A stretch of 64,000 bases of DNA from an uncultured Bifidobacteriaceae bacterium (GCA_964413165.1 CAYPSF010000001.1:1238-65237); one strand, 5' to 3'; positions 2,194 through 37,461 are shown, counted from the first letter of the stretch. A program made the numbers and translations. The notes: generated by a model not told the origin, from the sequence alone.

Positions 2194-2216
2194 GCGTCAA
2201 CTCTCAAGCGCTGATG

Positions 2217-2332: not shown

Positions 2333-2336
2333 ATAT

Positions 2337-5344: not shown

Positions 5345-5345
5345 A

Positions 5346-5987: not shown

Positions 5988-6721
5988 AGGTTCAATCCGA
6001 AACCGCCGTCCACGTGGAATACCTGTCCGGTGATGTAGGACGCTTCGTCAGAAGCCAGAAAACCTGCCAGGCCTGCTACCTCCTCCGGTTGCCCCGCCCG
6101 GCCCAGGAGGACGTGCGATCGCACGCGTTCGGAATGTTTCTCCAATACAGCGCGCGACATGTCCGTGACGATCACGCCGGGAGCGATGGCGTTGACCAGA
6201 ATGCCCCGCGGCGCCAATTCGATGGCCAGCGCGCGGGTCAGCCCCTCCAGTCCCGCCTTGGCGGCGGCATAATTCGCCTGTCCCCGCCCGCCCCGGCTGG
6301 CGACTACGGAGGAAATGTTGAGGATGCGGCCCCAGCGCTTCGTCACCATGAATTTGGCGCCGGCGCGGGATAAATTGAAGGCCCCGGTCAAACAAACCTT
6401 GAGCACCCGTTCCCACGCGTCGTCACCGGTGGCCAGGGCCGGCGATTCATCCGTGATGCCCGCATTGTTCACCAGAATGTCCAGGCCACCAAAACATTCC
6501 TTGACCGCCGCGACCGCCTGGTTGCACGAGGACGGTTGGGTTACGTCGAGTTGAACCGGGAAAGCTGTGCCTCCGGCACGTTGAATCTCCTCAACCACGG
6601 ACCGGGCCGCATCGGCGCGTTCGCGGAAACCCACGGCGACGCTGTGTCCCCGCCGGGCCAGCTCCAACGCGATCGCCTTGCCGATGCCGCGTGAAGCTCC
6701 GCTGACTAGAACTGATTTCAC
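5984..6721 (-). CDS. SDR-family 3-oxoacyl-ACP reductase (FabG-like) 2
   Basis: 245 aa. Motifs: VSGASRGIGKAIA, NNAGI, YAAAKAGLEG. Confidence 0.9.
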   Translation of the reverse strand: MKSVLVSGASRGIGKAIALELARRGHSVAVGFRERADAARSVVEEIQRAGGTAFPVQLDVTQPSSCNQAVAAVKECFGGLDILVNNAGITDESPALATGDDAWERVLKVCLTGAFNLSRAGAKFMVTKRWGRILNISSVVASRGGRGQANYAAAKAGLEGLTRALAIELAPRGILVNAIAPGVIVTDMSRAVLEKHSERVRSHVLLGRAGQPEEVAGLAGFLASDEASYITGQVFHVDGGFGLNL

Positions 6722-6895
6722 AAATCACTCGGGATGGGTGTGACTGCGGGCCGGGTAGATGCAGGCACAAAACCGCCCCTCATCCGACTCGTATAGAAAC
6801 TTTAGGGGGCGATTTGGGTCCACTCTCCACGAATCTTGCCAAATCCTTCACTTTCCTTGATTGGGCGCCGCAACCCGGCCGGTGAAACGACGTGT

Positions 6896-8158
6896 TCAGG
6901 AGTCGAATCGGCCGAAGACCAATGAGGCGTTCTGCCCGCCGAATCCGAACGAGTTGGACAGCACCGTCCGTCCTTCAAAACTGCGGCAGCCTTCGACCAC
7001 ATAATCGAGGTCACAGCGGGGGTCGGGATGTGCCAGGTTGATCGTGGGCGGCACTTTTCGGGCGTACAAAGTCATGGCCGAGGCAATGGCCTCCAACGCT
7101 CCACTGGTGGCAATCATGTGTCCGGTCATCGATTTGTTGGCGGTGACTGGAACGGCCCGGGCCTGCGCCCCCAGCGTCTGCTTGATGGCCAAAGTTTCAG
7201 CCACATCATTTTTGGGCGTTCCCGTGCCGTGGGCGTTGATGCAATGGATGTCTTCCGGCTGCAACCCGGCGTCCCGGATCGCCCGGGTCATGCTTGCCGC
7301 TGCGCCCCGGCCGTTCGGTTCCGGATCCGTGACCCGATAGGCGTCCAGTGACGAACCGTAGCCGAGGACCTCGGCGTAAATGTGCGCGCCGCGTTGCCGG
7401 GCGTGCTCCAGCGTCTCCAACACGATAAAAGCGGCGCCTTCCGCGAGGACCGTTCCTTGCCGTGTCGCATCAAACGGGCGGCAGGCTTTTTCCGGCCGTT
7501 CGTTTTCGGTGGAAAGGATTTGGAGCAGGCTGAACCCGCCGAGGGCCAGCGGATTCAACGTGCTGTCAGTGGCCCCGGCCAACGCCACGGCGGCGGTCCC
7601 ATCCCGCAACCGGCGGAAGGCCTCACCGACGACCTGTGCGCCCGCGGCACAGGCAGAACAATTTGTGTATCGTCCACGGTTCAAACCGTAATGATCGCCT
7701 AACATCTGGGTCAGCTTGTCCAGCGGCGTCTGGAGCCGGCATAGCGGTTCCTGGTTCAAAATCCGCCGCACGAAATCCCGCGCCGCGTCTGGCGCCTGAG
7801 CGATGGGAGTCACGTCCTCAAGGAAGAACGTCTCCAGGCTGACGCCGACGAAGAGCGGCGTGCTTTGAAGTATCTCTTGCGGCAGTCGGGCATCGGCGAT
7901 GGCCCCGGCGGCAGCGTCCAACCCCAGCCAGATCTTGCGGTCTTTCTCGCTTTCGGCTTCGGGAAATTCCCCCATCAATTCGCGCGGTGAAAAATTCTTC
8001 ACCTCGCCGCCAATGCGGACTGGCAGCGAGCTGGTATCGAACAGGGAAAGGGGGCCGATACCTGAACGTCCCGCCAGCAGGTTCTGCCAGAACTCGTTCA
8101 CCTTGCGTCCCAGCGATGTACAAAGCCCCAGGCCGGTGAGGACGACGCGGTGTTTCAT
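6896..8158 (-). CDS. Beta-ketoacyl-ACP synthase (FabF/KAS II-like, catalytically complete)
   Basis: 420 aa. Active-site Cys context TNCSACAAGAQ, INAHGTGTPKND (His), KSMTGHMIATSG (His), and C-terminal NSFGFGGQNASL. Confidence 0.9.
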   Translation of the reverse strand: MKHRVVLTGLGLCTSLGRKVNEFWQNLLAGRSGIGPLSLFDTSSLPVRIGGEVKNFSPRELMGEFPEAESEKDRKIWLGLDAAAGAIADARLPQEILQSTPLFVGVSLETFFLEDVTPIAQAPDAARDFVRRILNQEPLCRLQTPLDKLTQMLGDHYGLNRGRYTNCSACAAGAQVVGEAFRRLRDGTAAVALAGATDSTLNPLALGGFSLLQILSTENERPEKACRPFDATRQGTVLAEGAAFIVLETLEHARQRGAHIYAEVLGYGSSLDAYRVTDPEPNGRGAAASMTRAIRDAGLQPEDIHCINAHGTGTPKNDVAETLAIKQTLGAQARAVPVTANKSMTGHMIATSGALEAIASAMTLYARKVPPTINLAHPDPRCDLDYVVEGCRSFEGRTVLSNSFGFGGQNASLVFGRFDS

Positions 8159-9288
8159 GGCGGCTCCAAAACAAAGGCGGCCTGTTCGCTGCCATGGCCG
8201 AAACAGTTGGCCAGAACCTGGCCGCCGCTGCGCGCCGCCAGCAATGCCGCCAGGCCAACCTGCAGTCCGGCCGCCGCCGCAAAGAGGTCCCCGGCCTGTT
8301 TCTTGGGGTGAATGACTGCGGTCGCGGTAATTCGCCGGGATACCAGCGCTCGCCGTTCGTTTTCACCGGTCTGCACATCGCCGTTGTCGGCGGTGACCAT
8401 CGCGTCCAGGGGTTCCGGCGAAAGTTTTAACGCTTCGAATACTTCACCGTACGTGTCAGCCCGGCTCGCTCCCGGTCGGTGTGTGCGCAAGCTGAATTCC
8501 GATATCCGGGCGTAAGCCCGCGCGCCGCGGCTGGCGGCGCGGTCGGCGGTTTCCAGCACCAGGAAAACCGCTCCTTCGCCCGGCACCATGCCGACGTGGT
8601 TTTGCTGCCAGGACGCAAATAGCCCGTGTTGTTCCAGGCCGAGAAACGCGAGCTCATGGGTCTTCACGTCGCAACCACCCGCCAATGCGCAGCCGGCATC
8701 GCCACACTCCAGCGCCCGGATGGCGGACTCAATCGCCTGCGCCCCCTGTCCTTCCCAGGGAGTGTAGATGCTGTTCGGACCCCGGATATTTTCGCAGATG
8801 GACACGAAACACAGCGGCATGTTGCTGAGAATCTTGAAGGAAAGAATCGGGCTTACCGACCGCAGACCGGCCTGGCCAAAACGGCCGGGATCAAACCGGC
8901 CGTCGGGTCCCGTCGAGGCTTTAACCAGGGGAATAACTTCCGCCAATGGCAGACCGGCCAGACCCGTTGAGCCAAACAGCGCAATCTCTTCCGGCGGATA
9001 AGCGCCGCCCGGTTTTATCCCGGCATCCGCCAGGGCCAGGTGCGCCGCCACCACGGCCAATTGGGCGTCCCGGTTCATCAGGCGGATCATTTTGCTCTCG
9101 GCCACGTGCGGCTGCGGCTGAAAATTCCTGACCTCCGCGCAAACCGGGCACGAGAACGGAGCCGCGTCGAAACCGGTGGGCGGGCCGGCCGCCGACCGGC
9201 CGGTTTCAACACCGTGCAGAACTTCGAGCGGGTCTTGTCCCAGCGGGGTGACCATTCCGATGCCGGTGATGACAACGTGTGTGCGCAT
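8155..9288 (-). CDS. KS-like partner lacking the active-site Cys/His (chain-length-factor-like KS-beta)
   Basis: 377 aa of thiolase-fold-like sequence. The position aligned to the KS Cys reads YTPWEGQGAQAIESA with no Cys. There is no HGTGT motif. It overlaps the KS gene by 4 bp. Confidence 0.75.
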   Translation of the reverse strand: MRTHVVITGIGMVTPLGQDPLEVLHGVETGRSAAGPPTGFDAAPFSCPVCAEVRNFQPQPHVAESKMIRLMNRDAQLAVVAAHLALADAGIKPGGAYPPEEIALFGSTGLAGLPLAEVIPLVKASTGPDGRFDPGRFGQAGLRSVSPILSFKILSNMPLCFVSICENIRGPNSIYTPWEGQGAQAIESAIRALECGDAGCALAGGCDVKTHELAFLGLEQHGLFASWQQNHVGMVPGEGAVFLVLETADRAASRGARAYARISEFSLRTHRPGASRADTYGEVFEALKLSPEPLDAMVTADNGDVQTGENERRALVSRRITATAVIHPKKQAGDLFAAAAGLQVGLAALLAARSGGQVLANCFGHGSEQAAFVLEPP

Positions 9289-9303: not shown

Positions 9304-9759
9304 TCATCCCGCGCTCATCCAGATCTTCTTCAACTGCCGCCGCTTTTCATCCAGCAGCGGATCGTCCACATATTTGAAGGCAAACACCATCTCCGTCGAA
9401 GTCACAACCGTTTTTCCGCGGAACGCGGTGGCTTTGACTTTGCCGCCGGCCTCGTTTACCGATTTCACTTCCGTCCGGTAAATCAACGTGTCGCCCGGTT
9501 TAACCAGGGTCCGGAACTTGGTGCGTTCGAGGACAGTCAGGACCGCCTTGGCGTTTTTGGCATAGTGTTGGTGAAGGCTTTCTTCCAGGAGCAATCCGGA
9601 AAGCTGGGCCATTCCTTCCAGGATCAACACGCCCGGCATGACCGGCCGGCGCGGGAAATGGTCGTCAAAAAAGTCCTCGCTTAAGGCGATGTTTTTCAGG
9701 CCTTCCGCCGCGACGCCCGCTTCCCAGCGGGTGATTTTATCCAGCAAAAAGAAGCGCAT
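9304..9759 (-). CDS. FabZ-like 3-hydroxyacyl-ACP dehydratase
   Basis: HFPRRPVMPGVLILEGMAQLSG is the FabZ signature. I chose the start at MRFFLLDKI, which parallels the MKFRLVDKI start of the other dehydratase. The ORF track extends to 9921 but would then overlap the divergent comM start. Confidence 0.75.
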   Translation of the reverse strand: MRFFLLDKITRWEAGVAAEGLKNIALSEDFFDDHFPRRPVMPGVLILEGMAQLSGLLLEESLHQHYAKNAKAVLTVLERTKFRTLVKPGDTLIYRTEVKSVNEAGGKVKATAFRGKTVVTSTEMVFAFKYVDDPLLDEKRRQLKKIWMSAG

Positions 9760-9883
9760 GGCTTGGGCGCCGATGGTGAAGGGAATCCATTGGCCTGGCC
9801 AGCCTATTTCCCAGCCCCGGCCAACTGGTTCGGTTCCGAAGAACCGGATTGCATTGGGGACCGTGGTCGGATAAGTAACATTC

Positions 9884-11410
9884 ATGTTAGCGAGGGTTTG
9901 TTCCGCGGCGCTTAATGGCATCGAAGCCTATCCCGTCGAGGTCGAAGTCAATGCCGGCTGGGGCGACACCCTCGTCGTGATTGTCGGCCTGCCGGATGCC
10001 GCGGTGAAGGAATCGCGCGACCGGGTCTCCACCGCGCTCACCAACTCCGGGTTCAAGTTTCCGATGGGGCGCACCACCATCAACCTGGCGCCCGCCGACG
10101 TGAAAAAAGAGGGGCCGAGCTTTGACCTGCCCATCGCGCTCGGCATGCTGGCCGCCAACGAACAAATCGAGACCGACCAGCTCGACAATTTCATCATCGT
10201 GGGCGAACTCGCGTTGACCGGGGCGGTGCGTCCGTGCAAAGGCGTTCTGCCCGTCGCCCTCCGCGCCCGCGCCGACGGTTTGACCGGCGTGCTGGTCCCG
10301 GCGGAAAATGCCCCCGAAGCCGCTGTCGTCGAAGGGTTGCAAGTCATTCCCGTCCGGAATCTACGCGAGGCGGCCCAGTTCCTGGAGGGGGAAATCAAAA
10401 TCACGCCGGCAAAAGTGGACACCGCCCGGATTTTCGACCAGCCGCAGGACGACGACCTGGATTTTGCCGAGGTCAAAGGGCAGGAAAATGTGAAACGCGC
10501 CCTGGAAATCGCCGCCGCCGGCGGGCACAACGCACTGCTCATCGGGCCGCCGGGCACCGGCAAATCCATGCTCGCCAAACGGCTGCCGACCATTCTCCCG
10601 CCGCTCACGTTGGACGAGGCGCTGGAGACCACGAAGATCCACAGCATTGTCGGGTTGCTGGCTTCGGGCCAGGCGCTGGTGACTCGCCGGCCGTTTCGCA
10701 CGCCGCATCACACGGCCAGCGATGCCGGCCTGCTCGGCGGCAATGTCAATCCCACGCCCGGCGAAATCTCGCTCGCGCACAACGGCGTTTTGTTCCTGGA
10801 CGAACTGCCGGAATTCAAGCGCAGTGTGCTGGAGACCATGCGCCAGCCGCTTGAGGACGGGCGCGTCACCATCTCACGGGCGGCGGGCACCATGACCTTT
10901 CCGTCGCAATTCATGCTGGTGGCGGCGATGAACCCGACCCCGGACGGTAAGATGCCGCATGAATCGAGAAGTTCCCCGCGGGAAATCCAGAATTACCTGG
11001 GCCGGATTTCCGGGCCGTTGCTCGACCGGGTGGATTTGCACGTGGAAGTACCGCCGGTGAAGTTCCGGGAAATCGCCGGCGATCGCACCGGCGAAACCTC
11101 GGCACAAATCCGCGATCGCGTCGTGGCCGCGCGCCGCCGCCAACATGACCGGTTTAAATCCAAACCGAAGATCACCTGCAATGCCCGGATGGGCACGCGC
11201 GAATTGAAACAATTTTGCGAGCTGGACGAGGCGACGAAGGAACTGCTGCAAAATGCGATGGCCGATCTGAATTTGAGCGCCCGGGCCTACGACCGGATTT
11301 TGAAGGTGGCCCGGACGATTGCCGACCTGGCCGGGGCGGAAAAGATTCAGAGCGACCACATTTCCGAGGCCATCCAATACCGTTCGCTGGACCGCCAGTT
11401 GTGGGCGTGA
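9884..11410 (+). CDS. comM: ComM/YifB Mg-chelatase-like AAA+ ATPase
   Basis: 508 aa. [22 protein letters not shown] is the N-terminal Lon-like domain. Also present: GPPGTGKS Walker [11 protein letters not shown] Walker B, and a typical C-terminal ...[15 protein letters not shown]. Confidence 0.9.
11345..11410 (+). repeat. Direct repeat copy 1 (last 22 codons of comM)
   Basis: attcagagcgaccacatttccgaggccatccaataccgttcgctggaccgccagttgtgggcgtga. It matches 18529..18594 at 64 of 66 positions. Confidence 0.9.
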
Positions 11411-11431
11411 CCGGCGCAGATTCATCCAGGC

Positions 11432-13525
11432 TCATTGCAAGCGTATCCGGTAGAAGCTGGACGGGTTGGTGAGCGGACGGGGATCGGTGAACGTGGCCGT
11501 GCCATTGACGAACGGATTGGTGGCCAACGGTTGCCAGTTTGCGGGAACCAGTGAGAGCGTGGTTTCAACCACCGCCGAGCCGGTGTCCGGACCGGTTGCC
11601 TGAAAATTGAGTCCGCTGTTCAAGAACAGGCTGGCGGGGATGATGGCGACGGGATTCAACTGCAGCAGGATGTTTCCCATCGAACCTGCATGGGGGGTTC
11701 CGCCCACCGCCACCCGGTAGGTCGTGTTGGAAACGGCCGTAAAGACAAGATTGGTGGCGAATCCGTTCGTGACGAGCGTGAGACTGTTGACGGCGGTTCC
11801 CCGGTACACGCCCAGCGAGGCGGGGAATTCCGACCCGGAAGCGTTTAACCTGACCCGGCCGTTGAACGGGGCCGTCCATTTCCACCACACGGACCGCCCG
11901 GCGGATTGGCCGGCGTGATTGGGTTCACCCGTTTCCGTTGTGGCGCTGCGAATATAGCTGGCCCCGGTTGCCGACACCCCGCTCAGGGTAAAGGCGTTGG
12001 CGAACATGTCGTTCGGTGGTGGCGGCGGTGGTGGCGGCACCGTCAGGTGGATGGTGGGGCTGTCCACGGAAAAACCACAAAAGGGAGTGGCGCGGAGAAA
12101 ATAGTCGGCCGCGTCGTTGGTGGTCGCTCCCGAGATGCAGATGGAACTACCGGTCTGGTTGGTGAGCGGGTTGTTGTTCTTGTACCACAGGACGGGCGGC
12201 AGTGGCCAGGCATCCACGCCGGACTGGAGGCAGGAGGATTCACCGGTGAAAAGGGTTTGCCCTGCGGGCGAAGAAGCGAAGGTCACCGGACGTGGTGCAG
12301 GCACCCCAAGGCGGCGGCTGATAATGCCTCCTTCGGGGGTGAAGCCGGTTTCGCCGGCCAGAATGTATTTGCCGTCCGGTTGCCGGGCCATGGCGAATAC
12401 CGGAAAGCCGGCGTTGTTGTTGAAGCTCGCGTCCACGGTCCCATCGGGGAGCAGGTGGGCGAAGTTGTTGATGTTGTTGCCGCCAATCTGGCTGAAAAAG
12501 CCGGCCACAACGAGATCGCCGCCATCCAGGGCATCAATGGCTGCAATGGAGGAGCCGTTGTTAACGCCGGGTTGAAAACCATTGATACTGTGAAACCAGG
12601 CGGGGTCGCTGCCACCCAATCGTTCGAGATGGAAAGGGAGGAATTGGTCGCTGTTCGCAAAGTAGCTGGCATTGAAGAAACCGCCGCGGATCATTTCGCC
12701 GTGGGAACTGGAACAATTGTATTGCGCGCCCTGCGAGCGCATGGCCGCACAGGAACTTAGAATGTGATCGGCATAAGCGTTCTGGATGTCGCCATTGCCC
12801 TGGAGCACCAGCGCGCCAAAAGATCCGGCGAGGAGCAGATACGGGAAGCTGATGGTGTTGGGGCCACAGGCACAAGGAGGCAGGTAATGGATTTGGACGA
12901 CTTGATCCGAAGCATAGCTGGAAGGCATGTTGAAGGTCGGATCAAGCATGCCATCGATATGCAGGCAGGCCACATTGCCGACGATCGTATTATTGCTGTT
13001 GGTGTAGTTGACGCTGCCGGCGCCAAAGATGACCTGGGCCGGCTGGTTGAGACCCCGGTCGATCGCAATGCTATCACAGCGGCGGAAAACCTTGCTGGCC
13101 TGGGTGGTGAAGGCGGTATCCACTGCCCATGACTGGTTGTTGGGGGTATAATTCAGCCGGCCCATCCCGTTCTGTCCACCAACGTAAACATTGCCGGTGT
13201 CGTCCACCTCGATCGCGTGGACCACGCCAAGGCTGGCCAGCGATCCCGATGCGAATTGGGTGTTCAGGGTTCCGTCCGGATGAAGCACAGCCAGATAGGC
13301 ATAGGCCTGGCCGTAAATGTGGAGGAAGCGGCCGCCAATCCAGATATTGCCGAAGAGGTCTACGGCCACGGCGGTGATGGGTTCATCAATGGCGCCTTGC
13401 TGCGCAAACGTGTTGTCGGGGTCGCCGGGTGCCCCCGAGGCAGACAATGGGGGAAAGCCGGTCAGTGCGACCAGGAACATCCCGAGAAGCAAGAGTTGAA
13501 GATGTCGTTTCAAAATCTTTGGCAT
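11432..13525 (-). CDS. Secreted repeat (beta-propeller-like, delta-60/DUF5122-like) protein with poly-Pro linker and C-terminal beta-sandwich modules
   Basis: 697 aa. Signal peptide MPKILKRHLQLLLLGMFLVALTG...SASGA. Recurring D(P/A)xF...G repeats. PPPPPPPP linker. NDMFANAF...ETGEPNHAG...VWWKWTAP module. C-terminus ends ...ANWQPL...SSFYRIRLQ. Confidence 0.7.
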   Translation of the reverse strand: MPKILKRHLQLLLLGMFLVALTGFPPLSASGAPGDPDNTFAQQGAIDEPITAVAVDLFGNIWIGGRFLHIYGQAYAYLAVLHPDGTLNTQFASGSLASLGVVHAIEVDDTGNVYVGGQNGMGRLNYTPNNQSWAVDTAFTTQASKVFRRCDSIAIDRGLNQPAQVIFGAGSVNYTNSNNTIVGNVACLHIDGMLDPTFNMPSSYASDQVVQIHYLPPCACGPNTISFPYLLLAGSFGALVLQGNGDIQNAYADHILSSCAAMRSQGAQYNCSSSHGEMIRGGFFNASYFANSDQFLPFHLERLGGSDPAWFHSINGFQPGVNNGSSIAAIDALDGGDLVVAGFFSQIGGNNINNFAHLLPDGTVDASFNNNAGFPVFAMARQPDGKYILAGETGFTPEGGIISRRLGVPAPRPVTFASSPAGQTLFTGESSCLQSGVDAWPLPPVLWYKNNNPLTNQTGSSICISGATTNDAADYFLRATPFCGFSVDSPTIHLTVPPPPPPPPNDMFANAFTLSGVSATGASYIRSATTETGEPNHAGQSAGRSVWWKWTAPFNGRVRLNASGSEFPASLGVYRGTAVNSLTLVTNGFATNLVFTAVSNTTYRVAVGGTPHAGSMGNILLQLNPVAIIPASLFLNSGLNFQATGPDTGSAVVETTLSLVPANWQPLATNPFVNGTATFTDPRPLTNPSSFYRIRLQ

Positions 13526-13560
13526 TCGGTTGGGATTTAGACAGGGTGAAGGCTGTGCGG

Positions 13561-14709
13561 TTAAGGCGATGGGGTGAACGTCCAGCTCACGCTGGCACTG
13601 CCGGCGGTGGTGTCGGTCGCCGTTCCCGAGTAAATCATGACGCTTCCCAATTCAGCCGTGAGATAGGCGTCGCCGGTCCCGGACCAAAGCTGACTGTGCG
13701 TCGGGAACGATTCGGTTCCGGTGCTGGCCAGCGGACCAAAGCTGGCAGGCAGGGCGCGATTCATGACTTCGATCGTGCCGACCCAATGCAATAACGTTTG
13801 ACTGCCATTGCCATTAGCCAGGGTGGCGCTGATCACCGGCGAAACGTAAAAAGTGTAAGTGCCGGAAAGGCAGTCGATTTGCAGGGACACCGGCGAACTG
13901 GCATCCGGGGTGCCCGAGCCAATCAGAGTCGTGAGATTGTCCGGCGGAGCAATCGTCAGGGCATCTTCCAGGTCATTGATCTGCGCATTGCCACCCACCG
14001 TGCCGGTGAAGGTCGCGAAATGCGCGGTGACGGACGACGGGCTCAAATGGATCGTCAGGTTGCCTTGTTGGTGGATGTTGAACAGGTAACTGGACGAGGA
14101 GGCAGTAAAAGGATACACAAAACTCAACGTGCAATCCCACCCCTTCGCACTGACAAAATCACACGCAGCGGAAACGACCGCAACGGTGGTGAAGCAGGAA
14201 GTTACTCCGGCCAGGTTGCTCGCGACGAGCGTGTAAATCGTCGTGACCGACGGCGAGACCACGTAATTGCTGCCCGTGACCATGCCTGGCCCGGGCATCA
14301 GCTCGTAAGTGGTGTTCGTCACCGGTTCCCAACTCAATGTGCTGCTGCCACCCGGCGCAATCATCGATGGCGTCGCTGCGAACGTGCAGTTTCCATTGCC
14401 GCCACCGTTGGTGTTTCCCCCGCCTTCTTGCAGGCGAAAGAAGCGGCTGCGGTTGGTGACGGGTTCAAAAACGGCGAGGACATTGCCCAGGGGAAACGGG
14501 GTGTCTGGCACCGGTTGCCAGTTGGCCGGCGGGATCAGATTCGTGGTGCTGGTCAATCGCCAGCCGGCGAAATTGCTGGGCCAGGACACCTCCACAACGG
14601 TGAGGGTCAGCAGGGAAATCGAAAGCTTCGGCGTTGCCTGGGCTTGCACCCCGTGCGCGCCAGCCAGCAGGCCCATCAACATAAACAAGTTAATTTTAAA
14701 AGATTTCAT
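13561..14709 (-). CDS. Secreted hypothetical protein (N-terminal W..P...FFRL module, Gly/Asn linker)
   Basis: 382 aa. Signal peptide MKSFKINLFMLMGLLAGAHGVQA. Module SWPSNFAGWRL...ANWQPVP...SRFFRLQ, followed by GGGNTNGGGNGN. Confidence 0.65.
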   Translation of the reverse strand: MKSFKINLFMLMGLLAGAHGVQAQATPKLSISLLTLTVVEVSWPSNFAGWRLTSTTNLIPPANWQPVPDTPFPLGNVLAVFEPVTNRSRFFRLQEGGGNTNGGGNGNCTFAATPSMIAPGGSSTLSWEPVTNTTYELMPGPGMVTGSNYVVSPSVTTIYTLVASNLAGVTSCFTTVAVVSAACDFVSAKGWDCTLSFVYPFTASSSSYLFNIHQQGNLTIHLSPSSVTAHFATFTGTVGGNAQINDLEDALTIAPPDNLTTLIGSGTPDASSPVSLQIDCLSGTYTFYVSPVISATLANGNGSQTLLHWVGTIEVMNRALPASFGPLASTGTESFPTHSQLWSGTGDAYLTAELGSVMIYSGTATDTTAGSASVSWTFTPSP

Positions 14710-14810
14710 AACCTTATGGCAGGAAACGCAAAAAAACGGTCTGACCTTTCATTAAAATGGATTTTTTTGAAAGATTTCCGCCAGCAGCGGCGTTATCCTG
14801 TTTGTCGTCC

Positions 14811-15449
14811 ATGAACCGCCTGGAAACAGACCGACCGGAACGGGATTCCGTTGCCACCCGCGCCAGCCTGCTGGGTCGCATTCGCAATTGGGAGGATGCG
14901 GCCAGCTGGGAGGATTTTACCGAAACCTACTGGCGGTTGATTTACAGCGTCGCCCGCCGGTCAGGCTTGGCGGATGCCGAGGCGCGGGACGTGGTGCAGG
15001 AGACGCTTTTGGGGGTGGCAAAGAAAATCCACGAATTTGAATCCGACCCCCAACGAGGATCCTTCCGGGGCTGGTTGCTGAACCTGACCCGCTGGCGCAT
15101 CGCTGACCACTTCCGCAAGCATCCACCCGACCCGCAGGTTCCGCGGGCCGAATCAGGGTCGGACGATCGCACGGCCACAATCGACCGGGTGCCGGATTCA
15201 AACGAGATCGACGTGTGGTGGGAATTGGAATGGAAGAAGAACCTTCTTGAAACGGCGGTGACCCGCCTGAGCCGTCGGGTCAATCCGAAGCATGCCCAGA
15301 TTTACGATCTGTACGCGGTGCGCGACTGGCCGGCGGCCAAGGTTGCCCGCGAATTGGGGGTGAACGTGATCCAGGTTTACCTGGTCAACCACCGGCTGAC
15401 GCGTCTGCTCCAGGCAGAAGTTGCGTACCTGCGAAAGAAGCTGGAATAA
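14811..15449 (+). CDS. ECF-type RNA polymerase sigma-70 factor (kinase-associated type)
   Basis: Region 2 reads WEDFTETYWRLIYSVARRSGLADAEARDVVQETLLGVAKK. Region 4 HTH reads WPAAKVARELGVNVIQVYLVNHRLTRLL. The ORF-track start at 14757 is possible; I preferred the internal MNRLETD start. Confidence 0.85.
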   Translation: MNRLETDRPERDSVATRASLLGRIRNWEDAASWEDFTETYWRLIYSVARRSGLADAEARDVVQETLLGVAKKIHEFESDPQRGSFRGWLLNLTRWRIADHFRKHPPDPQVPRAESGSDDRTATIDRVPDSNEIDVWWELEWKKNLLETAVTRLSRRVNPKHAQIYDLYAVRDWPAAKVARELGVNVIQVYLVNHRLTRLLQAEVAYLRKKLE

Positions 15450-15535
15450 ACCGGCCTTCACCCCGAAAGCTGCGCCGGGCCGGCCAGTTTCATCTTTTCT
15501 TTTGAAGCGTATTCGGGAACATCGTCCGCGAGGTT

Positions 15536-18520
15536 ATGCGGTCTGACCCCCTCAGCATCCCGGATTTCGATCTGGTCCGGCCCGTCGGGCGCGGCAGTTA
15601 TGGCGAGGTGTGGCTGGCGCGCAGTGTGACCGGGATTCATCGGGCCATCAAGGTGGTGTATCGGGATCGTTTCGAAGAGGCCCGTCCGTTTGAACGGGAA
15701 TTTGCCGGCATCAAACGCTTTGAGCCGATTTCACGTTCCCAGGAAAACCTGGTGGACATCCTCCACGTGGGGCGCAAGGACGAGGGGGGCTGTTTTTATT
15801 ATGTGATGGAACTGGCCGACCCGGCGAGTGGCGATCCGGCGCCGGTATCGGAGGCCAGCAGTTCCGCGTGGGAACAGGACTACCGGCCCAGGACCTTGCG
15901 CGAAGCGCTCGCTACCCGGAAGCGGCTGCCCATCGAGGAGTGTCTGGCCATCGCCATCGGATTGGCCCGGGCGGTGAAACATCTGCACGAGCACGGCTTG
16001 ATTCATCGCGACATCAAGCCGTCCAATGTCATTTTCGTGAACGGAACCCCGAAGCTGGCGGACATCGGCCTGGTTTCCGCGGTGGAAGAATCCCGCTCGT
16101 TCGTCGGCACGGAAGGATTTGTTCCGCCGGAAGGGCCGGGAACACCGGCGGCGGACCTGTTCAGCCTGGGAAAGGTGCTGTACGAGATGAGCACCGGCCG
16201 GGACCGGCTCGAATTTCCTAAACTGCCGGAAGACCTTGAGCTCATTCCCAAACGTGAAGCCCTGCTGGAGTTCAACGAGGTGGTCCTGAAGGCGTGTCAT
16301 TCGCAGGTGAAGGAACGTTACCCATCCGCCAGTGACCTGCTCGACGATCTGTTATTGCTGCAGGCGGGACGTTCGGTGAAACGGCTTCGGCTGGCGGAGC
16401 GGCGCCTGGCTCGGCTGATCCCTTTGGTCCTGACGTTCGTGGGCTTGGGCCTGGCGGTTCTGGTCGTCCAACACCTGCGCACCCGCGCAGCCCAGGAACT
16501 GGCGCGAGTGGAAACCCGCTATCGCCACGAGGCGGAAACCCAGGAACTGGCCACGAGGCAATTGCTCTATGCGGCGGACATGAATCTGGCGCACCAGGCC
16601 TATGCCGCCGGCGACCTGGGCCGCACCAAAAGCTTGTTGACCGGCTGCATGCCCAAATCCGGCGCTCCCGATTTCCGCGGCTTCGAGTGGCGTTATTATT
16701 GGGGGCTTTGCCGGGGAGACCAGGACTACGCTTTTCCTGTCCAGTCCAACGCCATCGCCGAACTCGCCTTCTCCCCCGACGGTCGCCGGCTGGCATCGGC
16801 CGGCTACGACCACCGGGTCCAAGTGTGGGATTTTAACGGCCGTCAACTGATGAAAACTTACGCGGCCTCCGGAGGGGTCGAGGATGTTGGATTCTCTCCT
16901 GATGGGCGGAAGATTATGATGTCCGACACTGCGGGCTGCGTCGAAGTCAAGGAGGTTGAGAGCGGTCGGGTCCTCTTTCACCTGCAAGGCCGTTTCCGCC
17001 GCGCGACGATTTCACCCGGCGGAACGCTGCTGGCTCTGGGTGGCGGCGGCAAGCAGGCCTCGATGTTTCAGGGACCGGTTGAGGTCTGGGATTATCAGGG
17101 GCAGCAACGGCTTTTTTCCTTCACCAACGCCGGCACGTACGTCGCCTTTTCGCCCGATGGCAGGCGGCTGGCAGCCGGCAGCGACAACCATGAACTGAAA
17201 ATTTGGGATCTGGCGGACGCCACCTTGTTGCGGCGGATCCAGCCCGTGGAAGACAACTTTGGCATGAGCTTTTCGCCGGATGGCCGGAAATTGTTGTTGG
17301 GTGATGAGCTGGGGTTTCTGCATCTCTGGGATCTGGACTCCGGACGGCACCTGGCAGGTGTCCAGGCCCACAAAGGAAATATTTTCAAGACGGCGATTTC
17401 ACCGGACGGCAAGATCATTGCCAGCGTCGGTGCCGATCAGACGGTCCGGCTTTGGAATGCCGAATCGCTTTCGGAATTGCGAATTTTACGCGGGCACGCC
17501 AGCGAAGTGTGGGCGGTGGCCTTCTCACCCGATGGCAAAGCGCTGGTCACCGGCGGCAAAGACGGAAGGGTTCTGTCGTGGAGCGTGGCGGGCCCAATGA
17601 CGAAAGAGGTCCTGACCCAGGATGTAAATTTCTGGGACTGGCCGGTGTTTTCCGACGATGGAAGCCTGATCGCGGTGGGTGAGAAAAGGGCAGGTGTGAC
17701 CGTCTGGCGCGCGGCCGACGGGATGCGGCTGGATACGCTGGGCGACGCGGAAACGCCGCTGGCGTTCGACACCCATGCCGCATCGTTGCTGGCCCTCGGA
17801 CGAACCGGTGAACTGCAACAGTGGGCTCTGTCGTCGACCAATCATCAGCTCCTCAAACGCGTCCACCTGCCAGACATGGAAATTCGCGCCCACGCCTACC
17901 TCCCGGAACGCAACCTCCTGATCACCGGCGATAGCCAGGGGCTCATCCGGATTTGGGATGTGAATTCCGGTGCTGAATTGGCGCATTGGCAGGCGCATCC
18001 GGACCGCATCACCGGCATCGCTCTCTCGCCCAACCACACTCTGCTGGCCACCGTCGCTGAATCAGACGATGACGCGAAAGTCTGGGATCTGGGCCGGCAC
18101 GAATTGGTCCAAACCTTGCGCGGCCACAAAATGGCGGTGTTTGGTGTCGCTTTCTCACCGGATGGGCGAACCGTCGCCACCGCCAGCGTGGATGACACCT
18201 GCCGCCTCTGGGATGTCCGAACCGGACAATGCCTCGCCGAGTTGGGTGGGCATCAGGGCGGTACTTACAGCGTGGCGTTTTCGCCGGACGGCAAAACTCT
18301 GGCGGTCGGTTGCAACGAGGGCGAATTGAAACTTTGGAACCTTGCCACCCGGCGCGACATGATGACCCTGATGGCCGAGCCGCATACAATATTTGTCACC
18401 AGCTTTTCTCCCGACGGGAGGACCCTGGCCACCGTCAGTTTCAACCATCACGACGAGAAGTGTTCGCTCAAACTTTGGCGCGCGCCGGATGTGCCGGGAG
18501 CCGGCCCAGGGTCGCCGTAG
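15536..18520 (+). CDS. Ser/Thr protein kinase with transmembrane segment and C-terminal WD40 repeats
   Basis: 994 aa. Motifs: GRGSYGEVW glycine loop, AIKVV, HRDIKPSNV catalytic loop, DIGL. TM segment LIPLVLTFVGLGLAVLVV. More than 10 WD40-like units (FSPDG..LA.....V.LWD). Confidence 0.9.
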   Translation: MRSDPLSIPDFDLVRPVGRGSYGEVWLARSVTGIHRAIKVVYRDRFEEARPFEREFAGIKRFEPISRSQENLVDILHVGRKDEGGCFYYVMELADPASGDPAPVSEASSSAWEQDYRPRTLREALATRKRLPIEECLAIAIGLARAVKHLHEHGLIHRDIKPSNVIFVNGTPKLADIGLVSAVEESRSFVGTEGFVPPEGPGTPAADLFSLGKVLYEMSTGRDRLEFPKLPEDLELIPKREALLEFNEVVLKACHSQVKERYPSASDLLDDLLLLQAGRSVKRLRLAERRLARLIPLVLTFVGLGLAVLVVQHLRTRAAQELARVETRYRHEAETQELATRQLLYAADMNLAHQAYAAGDLGRTKSLLTGCMPKSGAPDFRGFEWRYYWGLCRGDQDYAFPVQSNAIAELAFSPDGRRLASAGYDHRVQVWDFNGRQLMKTYAASGGVEDVGFSPDGRKIMMSDTAGCVEVKEVESGRVLFHLQGRFRRATISPGGTLLALGGGGKQASMFQGPVEVWDYQGQQRLFSFTNAGTYVAFSPDGRRLAAGSDNHELKIWDLADATLLRRIQPVEDNFGMSFSPDGRKLLLGDELGFLHLWDLDSGRHLAGVQAHKGNIFKTAISPDGKIIASVGADQTVRLWNAESLSELRILRGHASEVWAVAFSPDGKALVTGGKDGRVLSWSVAGPMTKEVLTQDVNFWDWPVFSDDGSLIAVGEKRAGVTVWRAADGMRLDTLGDAETPLAFDTHAASLLALGRTGELQQWALSSTNHQLLKRVHLPDMEIRAHAYLPERNLLITGDSQGLIRIWDVNSGAELAHWQAHPDRITGIALSPNHTLLATVAESDDDAKVWDLGRHELVQTLRGHKMAVFGVAFSPDGRTVATASVDDTCRLWDVRTGQCLAELGGHQGGTYSVAFSPDGKTLAVGCNEGELKLWNLATRRDMMTLMAEPHTIFVTSFSPDGRTLATVSFNHHDEKCSLKLWRAPDVPGAGPGSP

Positions 18521-18528
18521 ACCCACAA

Positions 18529-18594
18529 ATTCAAAGCGACCACATTTCCGAGGCCATCCAATACCGTTCGCTGGACCGCCAGTTGTGGACGTGA
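18529..18594 (+). repeat. Direct repeat copy 2 (orphan comM 3' fragment)
   Basis: Encodes [21 protein letters not shown] with no upstream comM body. It starts 8 bp after the kinase stop. Confidence 0.9.
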
Positions 18595-18657
18595 GATCCC
18601 CGGGCAATCGCCTTGCCCGCGGATGGAAACCCGCCATACTGGCGCGGAACCGCTCTT

Positions 18658-21066
18658 ATGAACTATCGCGTGCGCCGTCGGGGGGACGATTTAGGAGTCT
18701 TTTCACTGGACGAATTGCGGCAACAACGCGAGTCCGGGGGGTTGACCGGCGATGAATATGTTCAAGGGGAAGGGATGTCCGACTGGCAGCCGCTGGAGCT
18801 GGTGTTGCAGCAGGGGTATCGCGTCGTGCCGCCGCCCCTGCCGTCGTCCGTCTCCAAAGGCGGCTTGAGCCAGGGCGTCATCTGGCTGATGATCGGCGGC
18901 GGAATATTTTTTTTTATCATTTTCGTCTCGGCCTTCACGTATTCGATACTCGGCTTTCAACGCGGTTTTCAGGGTGCCATCAACTCCTCCCGGGCGCGAT
19001 CGGGTGCCGCCGAGCCGAGCCTGGACGGGGTGTCCGCGGCCAGCAAGCCGGTGGTCTGGACAACCAACACGTTAACCGCCGCCGACGTTCAAAAGCAGGG
19101 ACGCGAATTCGGAACCCGCCAATGGCTGGATGGCTATGAAAAGCGCGGCCGCCGCAATCCGTCCTGCGACAGCAAAGTGGACCAGCTTCTTCGCGCCTGG
19201 ATTGCCCACGAGTCCGGCAGCCGGGTGGAAACGAATGCCCTTCCCGTGGCACAGCTGGGCGACCAACTGGCGGCGGATGCCAATTGCACCGACCCGTTGG
19301 TGTTGACTGTGGCCGCCGAAAGCAGCATCGAGATCTTCGAGTCCACCCATCGTTTTGAACGTGCCCTGGCCGGATTTCCCGAATCGAATCACAAGGCCTA
19401 TCCCCGCCTGTGCGCGTCCGTCGGAATAACCCGTTATCTGAGCGACCACCCGGAACGAATTGCCACCCTGGACGCGTCGTCGCTGAAATTGCTGGGAAAC
19501 TGTTTTGCCGATGGCAGTTTTCTGCCCGGCGACCAGCAAACGATCGGAGAAATTCTGGTCCACGATTGGGGAAATGCTTTCTTTGAAAGAAACGAGGCCG
19601 CCATTTGCCGGATCGTGCACCAGGCCGGGCCGGCCTATCAATGGCTGGCGCTGACGCTCGACGGTGAGCGCGAGATCAATGAAGCATGGAAGGTCCGCGG
19701 CGGCGGCTACTCCGGCACCGTAACCTCGGCCGGCTGGCAGGGTTTCAGCGATCACCTGGCCAAGGCCCGGAAAGTCCTCGCGCAAGCCTGGCATTTGCAG
19801 CCCGGGTTCCCCCTGGCGCCGTGCCGGATGATGACGGTGGCGTTGGGCGATTCCGATGCGGACGAAATGCGCATCTGGTTTGACCGGACACTGACAGCGC
19901 AATTGGACTATCCCCAGGCCTGGTCCGGAATGCGCTGGGGCCTGCGCTCGCGCTGGCACGGCAGCGAAGCCGCTTTGCTGGCGCTGGGCCGGACCGCAAT
20001 CCATACGGGACGTTTTGACACCGAAGTTCCCCGGAAGTTCCTTGATTGTGTTTCGGACGTGGAATCGGAAGAGGAGCTGGCGTCTAGCCGGCACATCTAT
20101 GGGCGCCCGGACATCTGGCCGGAACTGCAGACGATGTATGAGGGTTATCTCGCCGACCGCACGCAAGCATCGGGCCGCCGCGAATGGCTCGGCAACTATG
20201 CGATCGCCGCTTATTTTGCGGGAAAATATGACGTGGCGGCCGAACAGTTGAAAGCCTTGGATGGGAAACTGCCATCGCAGAGCCTGACCGGCTGGGGCGC
20301 GGATGTTTCGTTGATGCCCCTGGAAGCGGTCGCCCGCACGGGGCCGCTCAAAAAGGACGTTACCGAGGCTGAATCACACTATCAGAGCGGCGACCTGGCC
20401 ACGGCCCTGTACCAGTTTGGGGCGCTGCAGGCTGCGACCAATGCGGATGACGGAACCCGCAAATTTATTCAAACCCGGCTGGCGGCGATCTCCCTGGAAC
20501 AGCGGTTCCAGAAAAGAGAGTGGGTGGATTTCCTGCCGTCGGACAATGCCGATCCGGGTTGGGCCTGCCTGCGGGGTAAAATGCAGCGACTCCCGGACGG
20601 CGCGTTGGAAGTCCAATCCGGGCCGGAAGGGCATTTTATTTTCTCCCGCGCCCGCGTGGGTTCCAATTTTGAAATCCGCGGTGAATTCGAGGTGGTTCGC
20701 TCCTCAACGAAATATTTCCAGGCCGGACTGGTCATGGGCACGCCCGACGTGGACGCCTATTCCTTCCAGGCGTTTCGCATTCAACGGCACGAACAGGAAG
20801 GCGACATTGCGTGTTTCGCCGAAGGCTGGGGGCTGCGGCAACTCACGCAACAGGCAAAAGTGAACGCGGTCCGCAATACCTTCAATTTCCGCCTGGAAAA
20901 GGGCCGGATCACCGCGTCGGTCAATGGCGCCGAGGTTTTTGCCAGCGCGACGCCGAAAGACGAATTCAGCGGGCCGGACGAAGACATCCGCGCGGGGCTG
21001 GGTGCCTACAACGACACCAACGAAACCGTCATCCGCTACCGCAACGTTCGAATCCGGAAACTGTAA
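18658..21066 (+). CDS. GYF_2 (DUF4339)-domain membrane protein with C-terminal DUF1080/LamG-like domain
   Basis: Starts MNYRVRRRGDDLGVFSLDELRQ...GMSDWQPLELVL (GYF-like). TM segment VIWLMIGGGIFFFIIFVSAFTY. C-terminus ...WVDFLP...GALEVQSGPEGHFIFS...IRYRNVRIRKL (DUF1080-like). The ORF-track start at 18613 lies inside the comM repeat, so I preferred the internal start. Confidence 0.7.
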   Translation: MNYRVRRRGDDLGVFSLDELRQQRESGGLTGDEYVQGEGMSDWQPLELVLQQGYRVVPPPLPSSVSKGGLSQGVIWLMIGGGIFFFIIFVSAFTYSILGFQRGFQGAINSSRARSGAAEPSLDGVSAASKPVVWTTNTLTAADVQKQGREFGTRQWLDGYEKRGRRNPSCDSKVDQLLRAWIAHESGSRVETNALPVAQLGDQLAADANCTDPLVLTVAAESSIEIFESTHRFERALAGFPESNHKAYPRLCASVGITRYLSDHPERIATLDASSLKLLGNCFADGSFLPGDQQTIGEILVHDWGNAFFERNEAAICRIVHQAGPAYQWLALTLDGEREINEAWKVRGGGYSGTVTSAGWQGFSDHLAKARKVLAQAWHLQPGFPLAPCRMMTVALGDSDADEMRIWFDRTLTAQLDYPQAWSGMRWGLRSRWHGSEAALLALGRTAIHTGRFDTEVPRKFLDCVSDVESEEELASSRHIYGRPDIWPELQTMYEGYLADRTQASGRREWLGNYAIAAYFAGKYDVAAEQLKALDGKLPSQSLTGWGADVSLMPLEAVARTGPLKKDVTEAESHYQSGDLATALYQFGALQAATNADDGTRKFIQTRLAAISLEQRFQKREWVDFLPSDNADPGWACLRGKMQRLPDGALEVQSGPEGHFIFSRARVGSNFEIRGEFEVVRSSTKYFQAGLVMGTPDVDAYSFQAFRIQRHEQEGDIACFAEGWGLRQLTQQAKVNAVRNTFNFRLEKGRITASVNGAEVFASATPKDEFSGPDEDIRAGLGAYNDTNETVIRYRNVRIRKL

Positions 21067-36481: not shown

Positions 36482-36548
36482 GGGGGGGCCCAGTTTTATC
36501 AAAGGATTTGCCGGTCGCAATGGTCATAATAGGTTGAAAAGATGATGT

Positions 36549-37448: not shown

Positions 37449-37461
37449 ACCAAAACAAATT

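Follow-up and report, generated by a model that had tools for sequence, protein, structure and literature searches.

A Near-Identical Copy of the comM 3′ End Brackets a Signaling Module Inserted between comM and Its Ancestral Neighbor

We analyzed a 64,000-nucleotide stretch of DNA (the window) in which an intact comM gene and a second copy of its 3′ end bracket four genes (Table 1). The encoded ComM shares 85–93% amino acid identity with the comM products of related Limisphaerales-type MAGs. The two 66-nt copies form a direct repeat, agree at 64 of 66 positions, and lie 7184 nt apart from start to start; the end of the repeat coincides exactly with the comM stop codon. One mismatch is synonymous (position 6, CAG/CAA), and the other exchanges Ala for Thr (position 61, GCG/ACG). 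Each sits 6 nt from one edge of the repeat, a placement that fits homogenization of the interior. The right copy begins 8 nt past the stop codon of the kinase gene, and 63 nt separate its end from the ATG of the next gene (18658). Its translation bears out the orphan comM end that an earlier note on this DNA had described, and the duplication itself, which that note put at 66 bp with 64 identities, holds as well.

The same arrangement, with both repeat copies, is present in two independent assemblies (JGI 3300031240, 99.98%; ENA ERZ27245399, 99.8%), so the locus is not an assembly artifact. No further copy of the 66-mer occurs in the whole 64-kb window at up to 3 mismatches (0 expected in 100 shuffles), and relaxed blastn and tblastn searches of the window found no other comM 3′ fragment. 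A dispersed repeat, which would have overturned the earlier description, is thereby ruled out. No tRNA or known RNA was found at the repeat site.

Table 1. Genes and other features at the comM locus, in window coordinates
Feature	Coordinates	Strand	Evidence
comM, 508 aa, intact, target gene	9884..11410	+	Pfam ChlI, Mg_chelatase, Mg_chelatase_C (PF13541, PF01078, PF13335)
Left repeat copy: last 22 codons of functional comM, through the stop	11345..11410	+	
Inserted segment, 7118 bp, absent from empty-site relatives	11411..18528		Alignment to L083, L100, L105
DUF5122 (delta-60 repeat) beta-propeller protein, secreted; gene call of 682 aa starting at 13480	11432..13525	-	Pfam PF17164
Hypothetical protein, 382 aa, N-terminal (Sec) signal peptide MKSFKINLFMLMGLLAGAHGVQAQA	13561..14709	-	N-terminal sequence
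ECF-type sigma factor; gene call of 212 aa starting at 14811	14757..15449	+	Pfam Sigma70_r2
Ser/Thr protein kinase of 994 aa, WD40 propellers at the C terminus	15536..18520	+	Pfam Pkinase and WD40 families
Right repeat copy: orphan comM 3′ end, noncoding relic or att-like site	18529..18594	+	
Ancestral comM–GYF intergenic region	18595..18657	+	Alignable with empty-site relatives
GYF_2/3-keto-disaccharide-hydrolase domain protein, 802 aa, ancestral downstream neighbor of comM	18658..21066	+	Pfam

Pfam matches and a signal peptide confirm the cargo as first described: two secreted proteins, an ECF sigma factor, and a WD40 Ser/Thr kinase. At its 3′ end the DUF5122 gene comes within 21 nt of the comM stop, and orthologs of its product show 54–78% amino acid identity. 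The 382-aa protein matches no Pfam family and is kept within the module in L095, L097, L104, and L108. The ECF sigma gene is divergent from both secreted-protein genes. Kinase orthologs reach 88% amino acid identity in L108, 83% in L095/L096, and 78% in L104, and a sigma gene beside the Pkinase gene is common to L095, L097, L104, L108, and L111. The same module also occupies other loci in relatives (L095/L096, L097, and L111), there without flanking repeats; none surrounds it in L095 or L097. Among 5.8 billion proteins, the nearest match outside this species reaches 88% amino acid identity, so the module has no close copy there and recent mobility is not indicated. What the segment carries is a conserved chromosomal module made up of ordinary signaling and secreted-protein genes.

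Comparative gene order identifies the segment as an insertion. comM abuts the GYF gene in L083, L092, L100–L103, and L105, and probably in L085; three of these (L083, L100, and L105) align to the window until ~11406–11412 and again from ~18528–18537. Because at least five related lineages carry comM directly before the GYF gene, 11411–18528 is an insertion into an ancestral comM–GYF junction, and the empty sites that the earlier note proposed to look for do exist. There is no synteny around comM in the nearest species representatives (L001–L006), which are hence uninformative. The ancestral intergenic region retains a conserved CCTTGC (−35-like) box and a second box downstream, which may together form a promoter. 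Retention of the orphan as a promoter for the GYF gene was considered and rejected: the −35-like box is outside the orphan, in the intergenic region that follows it; a promoter consensus scan of the orphan gave no match; and the orphan of L106 has decayed uniformly, which counts against such retention.

The segment does not look foreign, and it encodes no means of movement. Its composition is ordinary, like that of the rest of the window: GC is 0.603 versus 0.602, its tetranucleotide distance ranks 27 of 114, and its GC3 is that of the neighboring genes, so the suggested k-mer and GC comparison of 11411–18528 with the flanks uncovered no deviation. Pfam annotation of all four genes identified no integrase, transposase, or other mobility gene, and a scan for the tyrosine-recombinase box-II motif found no ORF bearing it anywhere in the window, in agreement with the earlier observation that the segment lacks an integrase. 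With intergenic gaps no longer than ~100 nt, the segment has no space for a pseudogene, and it lacks terminal inverted repeats. Pfam annotation of ORFs at 1–8 kb and 30.8–57 kb of the window, with three ORFs of >1000 aa set aside, yielded no recombinase. Given the ordinary composition, the lack of mobility genes, and the conserved chromosomal cargo, the idea of a mobile island finds no present sign of a mobile element.

The search was extended to other genomes with the same outcome. No mobility gene was found in the comM-orphan segments of L019, L029, L009, L104, and L106, and no integrase-bearing element was found at the comM 3′ end in any of the 130 loci examined; this screen reached 6–10 kb downstream of comM in 63–80 genomes, a span that islands >10 kb escape. 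The 126 ORFs immediately following comM in 80 genomes yielded no mobility gene either, in a view complete for families with at least two members, and Pfam family counts together with the box-II motif gave, across 80 genomes, a single XerC/D-like ORF, located upstream of comM in L065. Four viral contigs in IMG/VR with the conserved comM C-terminal motif are large-serine-recombinase prophages inside mid-comM. In one further viral contig, phage-like genes come after a comM 3′ end that opens the contig, and the available half, 11 kb, contains no integrase.

Diverged relatives bear on the age of the insertion. The module also stands beside comM in L108 and L104. With L108 the window shares the entire left junction—comM stop, 21 nt, DUF5122 3′ end—at 86% overall identity, so the adjacency of comM and module predates the split between the two. 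Because this adjacency is shared with both L108 and L104, the insertion looks old, not recent. L104 has lost its DUF5122 gene except for an ~80-nt 3′ remnant, and its orphan has decayed outside the final 22 nt (20/22, z ~8.7); the preceding 53 nt are weakly similar to the window, in register (p 0.014–0.03). This one relative suggests that the right junction, with its orphan, may be equally old. No orphan is detectable in L108 and L109, which carry comM and the module. A decayed L108 orphan, read by eye from an alignment, was withdrawn when local and semiglobal alignments proved no better than shuffles, and a 12-nt remnant in L087 (INRQLWT) is not significant by itself.

Sequence divergence and repeat identity must be read together. 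Divergence at four-fold sites is 0.28–0.31 to L108 and 0.37–0.50 to L104, from which >10 changes would be expected in 66 nt under neutral decay; 2 are seen. A near-perfect repeat at an old insertion calls for a second explanation: either the copies were refreshed by recombination later on, or the same site received an insertion independently. As diverged lineages share the insertion, the closeness of the two copies does not serve to date it. At the nucleotide level, the window module is 87% identical to that of L108, 82% to that of L095, and 76% to that of L104 at the same site; the window comM is closest to the comM of L104. These discordant distances of comM, module, and downstream flank mark the region as a recombination mosaic. 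No mosaic breakpoint is visible in comM near the repeat; an unusual closeness to L104 is confined to the 5′ 450 nt.

Duplicated comM ends recur elsewhere. In L106 a different chromosomal module, homologous to window genes at 34–46 kb, lies beside comM with an independent orphan (47/59), longer than that of L104. Three unrelated genomes (L019, L029, and L009) carry comM 3′ orphans in direct orientation, bracketing integrase-less segments. Such orphans accompany 3 of 63 comM genes versus none of 388 neighboring control genes (Fisher p=0.0026). Between orphan and resident end, these three genomes differ at 24 synonymous versus 9 nonsynonymous codons, including Ser TCN/AGY switches and alternative stop codons, a synonymous bias indicating that every one of these insertions brought in a functional comM end of its own. 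The two ends in L029 differ at 13 of 20 codons, with a longest identical run of ~15 nt. Junction positions vary across the independent events: ~38–60, 66, at least 78, ~126, and at least 375 nt. For L029, L009, and L019, a comparison of the extent of the foreign comM part with that of the repeat has no power, as the relatives are only 65–72% identical in nucleotide sequence.

Our leading reading, to which we assign a probability of roughly 45%, is that the scar is the relic of a Campbell-type, CIME-like integration at the comM 3′ end. DNA bearing its own comM end would have recombined with the chromosomal comM end, placing the 7.1-kb module between comM and the GYF gene, keeping comM intact, and leaving the displaced original end beside GYF as the orphan. 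The catalyst would most likely have been a site-specific recombinase not encoded by the segment—supplied in trans or since lost—and the segment would then be an integrase-less, CIME-like island. In the window, the two copies would later have been kept alike by recombination with each other or with island-free alleles, and the same repeats would allow precise loss of the segment.

This Campbell-type reading draws on a repeat that is unique in the window and ends at the comM stop, on the empty sites in at least five related lineages, on the occupation of the same site by the same module plus orphan in L104 and by other cargo in L106, and on the enrichment of comM orphans. The synonymous bias of the L019, L029, and L009 ends is also expected when an integrative element brings a functional gene end. 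The reading is weakened by the lack of a mobility gene, by the ordinary composition and chromosomal cargo, and by L108 and L109, which carry comM and module without a detectable orphan. The module has been beside comM for a long time, and no recombinase is present. Of the att-like geometry proposed earlier, the insertion scar stands (repeat, empty sites, and intact comM), but a recombinase-free route explains that geometry about as well.

Several integrative elements bring a replacement gene end to their target: phage 21 and e14 in icd, ICESt1 and ICESt3 in fda, and SGI1 in trmE. The position of SGI1 in trmE is also given in PMC6531882. The segment resembles these elements in that its repeats are the last codons of the target, the target is intact, the orphan lies beside the old neighbor, and relatives retain empty sites; the mainly synonymous end differences of L019, L029, and L009 are a further likeness. 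It differs from them in carrying no integrase, excisionase, phage, or conjugation genes, in its host-like composition, in having a conserved signaling module as cargo, and in being an apparently ancient and fixed insertion. Of the traits of a classical island, direct repeats that include the 3′ end of the intact target and an empty site are present, and an integrase of its own and foreign composition or mobility cargo are absent.

CIMEs are cis-mobilizable elements, att-flanked and integrase-less relics of the Streptococcus thermophilus ICESt1/3 family. Here too, att-like direct repeats at a gene 3′ end bound a segment devoid of recombination and transfer modules, which by analogy might in principle be mobilizable in trans. 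Unlike the case of CIMEs, no cognate integrase-bearing element was found at the comM 3′ end among the 130 loci.

Known elements also target comM, though differently. Tn6022/AbaR (Tn7-like, with TnsF) and Tsy (tyrosine recombinase plus TnsF) insert in this gene (PMC10293859), and IGEs insert in yifB (PMC7192596). These elements and the serine-recombinase prophages share their target gene, comM/yifB, with the segment. The known comM elements lie mid-gene (in the Walker B region or at residues ~215–360), split and inactivate comM, encode their own transposase or recombinase, and produce no long duplication. Here, in contrast, comM is intact, the site is its last 66 nt rather than the Walker B region (~residue 300), and neither tnsABC/TnsF nor a tyrosine recombinase with TnsF is present. 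The earlier assertion that comM is an island target is therefore right in that mobile elements are known there, but those elements split the gene midway and are not of the same kind.

Homology-facilitated illegitimate recombination is known from natural transformation in Acinetobacter and Streptococcus pneumoniae. Such an event between two gene orders, with no recombinase involved, is the main alternative, somewhat unlikely but substantial. It would combine one homologous crossover, in the highly conserved comM or the far flank, with one illegitimate joint 66 nt inside the recipient comM: Either a comM 3′ end plus module was imported into a comM–GYF chromosome, or the import was a block (orphan–GYF onward) that began 66 nt within comM and landed behind the module of a comM–module chromosome such as that of L108. 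Both parental orders exist, comM–GYF in L083, L100–L103, and L105 and orphan-less comM–module in L108 and L109, and the products of this process resemble the locus in placing foreign DNA beside a conserved anchor gene with variable joints and no element recombinase. The failure to find a recombinase in any scan fits this route, as do cargoes, that of L106 included, made up of ordinary chromosomal modules from the same clade, and discordant distances in a mosaic region. Orphan lengths differ between events, and the variable junction positions also fit random illegitimate joints. Identity stopping at the stop codon would be automatic because the two downstream contexts differ, and synonymous-biased differences are also expected with an incoming functional donor comM end. 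This route does not obviously predict the enrichment at comM over 388 other genes, however, and the L029 ends are too diverged for an efficient comM anchor. Classical events, moreover, usually delete recipient DNA, with 3–10-nt microhomology, rather than duplicate it; they do not typically duplicate the end of the anchor or favor a single gene, and at least three events at one gene end in one genus-level clade are hard to credit to chance.

Two independent insertions at the comM end, recent in the window lineage and long ago in that of L104, would require a still-active site-specific system recognizing the comM 3′ end. The 64/66 repeat would then date the window event, with no need for gene conversion. 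The near-perfect window orphan beside an L104 orphan decayed outside its last 22 nt suits this account, as does a window module nearer to those of L108 and L095 than to that of L104 while comM is nearest to L104; the sharply bounded 22-nt block in L104 also resembles an att core. We nevertheless regard it as improbable: the shared left junction puts the adjacency before the window–L108 split, there is no near-identical module copy elsewhere, the recombinase was not found, and the in-register similarity of the L104 spacer to the window spacer and orphan suggests one shared event.

Equally speculative, and doubtful on present evidence, is a broader proposal in which the extreme 3′ end of comM would act as a conserved docking site. 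Verrucomicrobiota, Bacteroidota, and other phyla would have used it many times over for the insertion and exchange of ordinary chromosomal modules without an element-encoded integrase. The agent would be an undescribed trans-acting recombinase, from host or helper, reading the conserved coding sequence, or else an intrinsic hotspot, and the 66-nt repeat would be a live site kept by use, not a dead scar.

An artifact or in situ accident can be set aside as highly improbable: although these are metagenome assemblies, in which a repeat of 66 nt might in theory lead a de Bruijn assembler astray, the assemblies of two independent projects agree and the diverged L104 and L108 share junctions, which rules out a chimera; a tandem-duplication remnant of comM predicts island sequence after the orphan, where the ancestral neighbor is found, and empty sites exist; and a transposase target-site duplication has against it the lack of a transposase and of terminal inverted repeats and a length of 66 nt, far beyond known ones.

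The locus shows in good resolution how a conserved gene end serves as a seam for swapping whole regulatory modules in Verrucomicrobia, the ECF sigma/kinase module in this genome and a CsgG-type surface module in a relative. It goes beyond a routine island in that comM 3′ orphans, significantly enriched over neighboring genes, turn up in unrelated phyla and in every case lack an integrase, and in that the orphan stayed almost identical to comM though the module adjacency appears ancient. Were a dedicated recombinase or hotspot at work, this would be a third class of comM insertion, one that preserves the gene, beside the inactivating mid-gene transposons and prophages; otherwise the locus would be a neat fossil of illegitimate recombination.

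The cargo is probably a self-contained envelope-signaling unit. Judging from domain content and general knowledge, the kinase would control the ECF sigma factor, and the sigma factor would drive the divergent secreted-protein genes. ECF sigma factors paired with Ser/Thr kinases include the ECF43 type and EcfP–PknT of Vibrio parahaemolyticus. The module appears similar in layout, with a sigma gene followed by a kinase gene, no anti-sigma gene, divergence from the secreted-protein genes, and conservation as a unit. A point of difference is the C-terminal WD40 sensor of the kinase, a feature typical of paralogs in Verrucomicrobia and Planctomycetes.

The 7.1-kb, four-gene segment (the island) between comM and a GYF_2/3-keto-disaccharide-hydrolase gene (the GYF gene) is a real, old, integrase-less insertion scar at the comM 3′ end. 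Its closely packed genes lie between two copies of a 66-nt direct repeat, whose position and 64/66 identity are as the earlier note had them; the two mismatches each lie 6 nt from a repeat edge. The right copy, an extra comM 3′ end that we call the orphan, stops 63 nt before the ATG of the GYF gene. These are the only copies in the 64-kb window, where none is expected by chance, which sets aside a dispersed repeat within that span. Relaxed searches found no more comM fragments in the window, and the locus has no tRNA and no match to an Rfam family. We rejected an assembly artefact because two independent assemblies reproduce the structure with both repeat copies (JGI 3300031240, 99.98%; ENA ERZ27245399, 99.8%).

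Positions of comM-end repeats, island genes, and recombinase genes adjoining comM
Feature	Source	Coordinates	Strand	Details
Left repeat copy	window	11345-11410		end of intact ComM, 508 aa
DUF5122 beta-propeller protein	island		minus	
382-aa protein	island		minus	clear signal peptide
ECF sigma factor	island		plus	
Pkinase+WD40 protein	island		plus	994 aa
Right repeat copy (orphan)	window	18529-18594		begins 8 nt past kinase stop; peptide ...[21 protein letters not shown]
comM end and orphan, L019	Akkermansiaceae MAG	1994-2114, 10367-10487		8.4 kb apart; cargo: ABC transporter, oxidoreductases
comM end and orphan, L029	Flavobacterium MAG	11477-11536, 13736-13795		2.2 kb apart; cargo: phosphoesterase, glycosyltransferase
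comM end and orphan, L009	unclassified MAG	11471-11542, 13622-13693		2 kb apart; cargo: two hypothetical proteins
Large serine recombinase (Resolvase+Recombinase+Zn_ribbon)	L112, IMG/VR viral contig	9392-11533		
Same	L115, IMG/VR viral contig	438-2579		
Same	L114, IMG/VR viral contig	2187-4647		
Same	L116, IMG/VR viral contig	197-2846		

The source organism is a Limisphaerales-type verrucomicrobium, and the ComM proteins of its closest species representatives are 85–88% identical. With the GYF protein as query, metagenomes and a protein collection yielded relatives carrying comM and GYF. In L083, L092, L105, and the four assemblies L100–L103, comM is followed after ~62 nt by GYF and then by RDD-SpoIIM-DUF58-MoxR, as in the window; L085 probably also has comM directly before GYF. 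Alignments of L083, L100, and L105 to the window stop at the comM stop codon and restart at the orphan. The absence of empty sites, which the earlier note named as a refutation, is thus contradicted: such sites exist, and the ancestral junction was comM–GYF. The window segment is an insertion into that junction.

Nothing suggests recent mobility. The island's GC and tetranucleotide composition, which the earlier note had suggested comparing with the flanks, does not deviate from that of the remaining window. Outside this species, the nearest kinase copy among 5.8 billion proteins is 88% identical. The island lacks an integrase, as originally claimed, and neither it nor the scanned window ORFs (1–8 kb and 30.8–57 kb, three ORFs >1000 aa excepted) contain an integrase, a transposase, or another mobility gene. 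The earlier note's observation is thus confirmed and its interpretation partly supported: the att-like scar stands as an old insertion at the comM 3′ end, but the segment is not demonstrably a mobile island.

The four-gene module is conserved, with its gene order, in relatives. It follows comM directly in L108, which is collinear with window 9877-18500 at 86.4% nucleotide identity, and lies between comM and GYF in L104, as in the window. Deletion has reduced the L104 DUF5122 gene to a ~80-nt remnant, and only the last 22 nt of the L104 orphan are well preserved (20/22, z ~8.7). L109 (GCA_049280815.1, 9048-11965) is a deletion derivative of the L108 arrangement: comM codons 1–231 are joined to the C-terminal 654 codons of the kinase (the WD40 part), so that the 3′ half of comM, the genes for the two secreted proteins and the sigma factor, and the kinase domain are gone. 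The module–comM neighborhood is evidently deletion-prone. Elsewhere on the chromosome, the module occurs with neither comM beside it nor flanking repeats (L095/L096, 82% nucleotide identity; L097; L111). By gene content, the cargo resembles ECF-sigma/Ser-Thr-kinase signaling pairs. A more distant relative (L088:3780-8538) has another kinase/ECF module, comprising a 998-aa Ser/Thr kinase, a hypothetical protein, and an ECF sigma factor, directly upstream of GYF and between UbiA/UbiX and MqnC-like menaquinone genes, an unexpected housekeeping context.

Genetic distances differ along the locus. The window comM is nearest that of L104 (third-position difference 0.24, vs. 0.31 to L108), whereas the window module is much nearer L108 (87% nucleotide identity) than L104 (76%), and the tree of the downstream flank is almost a star. 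Judged by these mosaic distances, the region has recombined between lineages.

The comM 3′ end has been used repeatedly. L106, from the L104/L105 clade, carries a distinct orphan before GYF that reaches at least 10–25 nt further into comM (47/59 identical). The cargo preceding it differs from the island, consisting of CsgG-domain and large surface proteins; this cargo (L106:1-6667) is homologous to window 34463-46597, 16–28 kb downstream of GYF, with amino acid identities of 86% for the CsgG-domain protein, 70% for a 277/299-aa protein, and 30–47% for the large proteins. Modules of ECF-linked surface proteins appear to be shuffled at the comM/GYF junction. A screen of 80 species-representative comM loci, which detects only islands <10 kb, found a direct-orientation orphan a few kilobases downstream in three further genomes (L019, L029, and L009), with no integrase in the bracketed 2–8 kb. 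Applied to 388 other genes of those loci, the same screen matched only tandem paralogues and gave no true orphan (3/63 for comM vs. 0/388; P = 0.0026).

Orphan and resident ends differ mostly synonymously in all three genomes (codon ratios 7:3, 7:3, and 10:3), and the differences include serine TCN/AGY switches and alternative stop codons. Both copies were therefore once real comM ends, and the incoming DNA carried its own functional end. The L019 copies match over 109 nt at 96%, and the 12 nt that follow, the last of the gene, are heavily recoded; in L029, 13/20 codons differ and unbroken identity spans only ~15 nt, which by analogy resembles an att core within a diverged gene-end mimic. What deserves systematic follow-up is the recurrence across phyla of comM-specific orphans without an integrase.

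That comM is a known insertion target, as the earlier note held, is correct, but the known elements split the gene midway and carry their own enzymes, unlike this locus. Tn6022/AbaR and Tsy insert at the Walker B motif (PMC10293859), and IGEs likewise interrupt yifB (= comM) mid-gene (PMC7192596). In IMG/VR contigs, large serine recombinases adjoin, or run in frame into, the comM C-terminal part from about residue 215, 280, or 360; L112, L114, L115, and L116 are prophages splitting comM mid-gene, with joints at about residues 215–360. The present locus has none of the defining features of these elements. Integrative elements that replace gene ends include phage 21 and e14 in icd, ICESt3 in fda, and SGI1 in trmE; the locus operates in the same manner, but without an integrase. 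CIMEs are the nearest described category, although a search for a cognate element found none. A 21.5-kb viral contig (L113/L118, IMGVR_UViG_3300007140_000042) starts exactly at the last ~41 codons of a comM (...[13 protein letters not shown]...[14 protein letters not shown]), where the L019 orphan also starts, and continues into a DNA methylase, an HTH repressor-like gene, and small phage-like ORFs. It has no integrase in the 11 kb examined and may be a prophage at a comM 3′ end.

Geometrically, the locus matches a single-crossover (Campbell-type) insertion of DNA bearing a comM end. We favor, at a probability of about 0.45, site-specific integration by a recombinase encoded outside the segment, which would make the segment a CIME-like relic. 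It is supported by the bias toward comM, by a design that preserves the gene, by the diverged mimic plus core of L029, and by the sharply bounded 22-nt block of L104. Against it, no instance contains an integrase, none was found within 6–10 kb downstream of comM in 63–80 genomes, the cargo is mundane and host-like, and junction positions vary. A recombinase-free origin is a serious rival, if on balance unlikely: homology-facilitated illegitimate recombination between the gene orders comM–GYF and comM–module (as in L108), with one joint 66 nt inside comM. Both orders exist in the clade, and this route accounts for variable orphan lengths, chromosomal cargo, and mosaic distances; it does not predict enrichment at comM and is implausible with ends as diverged as those of L029.

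The left junction (comM stop, 21 nt, DUF5122 3′ end) is common to the window, L108, and L104. On the right, L104 has 53 nt between its kinase stop and its 22-nt orphan; these show weak, collinear similarity to the 8-nt spacer of the window together with the first 44 nt of the window orphan (P 0.014–0.03). A decayed orphan first read by eye in L108 failed shuffle tests and was withdrawn. Four-fold-site divergence from the window is 0.28–0.31 for L108 and 0.37–0.50 for the L104 module; comparators are metagenome assemblies throughout, several of them long-read with frameshifts. If a single shared event made the right junction, neutral evolution along the window lineage should have left well over ten changes in the 66-nt relic; two are observed. 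Recombination may have kept the orphan like comM, either by gene conversion of one copy by the other or by exchange with alleles that lack the island, in which the orphan would serve as the homologous arm; alternatively, the window's right junction may have re-formed more recently at the same place. The age argument holds only if the L104 and window junctions are orthologous; independent insertions in the two lineages by a still-active system are improbable, and an artefact or in-situ accidents far more so.

Upstream of comM, neighbors vary. L081, a strain 99.8% identical across comM, island, and GYF, retains ~80% identity over 9839-9883 before the comM start codon and then loses homology (window 9760-9883; L081:1-1057); in place of the window's FabA/ketosynthase genes lies an unrelated ORF of 326 aa that extends to the end of the contig. 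Relatives have ETF genes (L104, L108, and L109) or glycosyltransferase/sulfotransferase genes (L083 and L100), so the DNA on either side of comM varies. Window 225-9288 encodes two radical-SAM (HMPTM-type zinc-ribbon) enzymes, a hexapeptide transferase, two FabA-like dehydratases, two SDR reductases, a nitroreductase, and two ketosynthases; the set resembles a biosynthetic cluster for a lipid or polyene-type product, and no relative examined has it upstream of comM. Downstream, ~26 kb of the window is missing from L104, whose alignment skips from about 30631 to 57055, and in L108 the module joins the same point, 57055, after 1.8 kb. This stretch (about 30630-57055) begins with another ECF sigma factor (30780-31382), followed by the CsgG-domain surface-protein module (about 34–46 kb) and then by metabolic genes (MetE-like, CoA-transferase, RhaT, and SASA esterase). 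L105 retains at least its first kilobase, so L104 may have a deletion.
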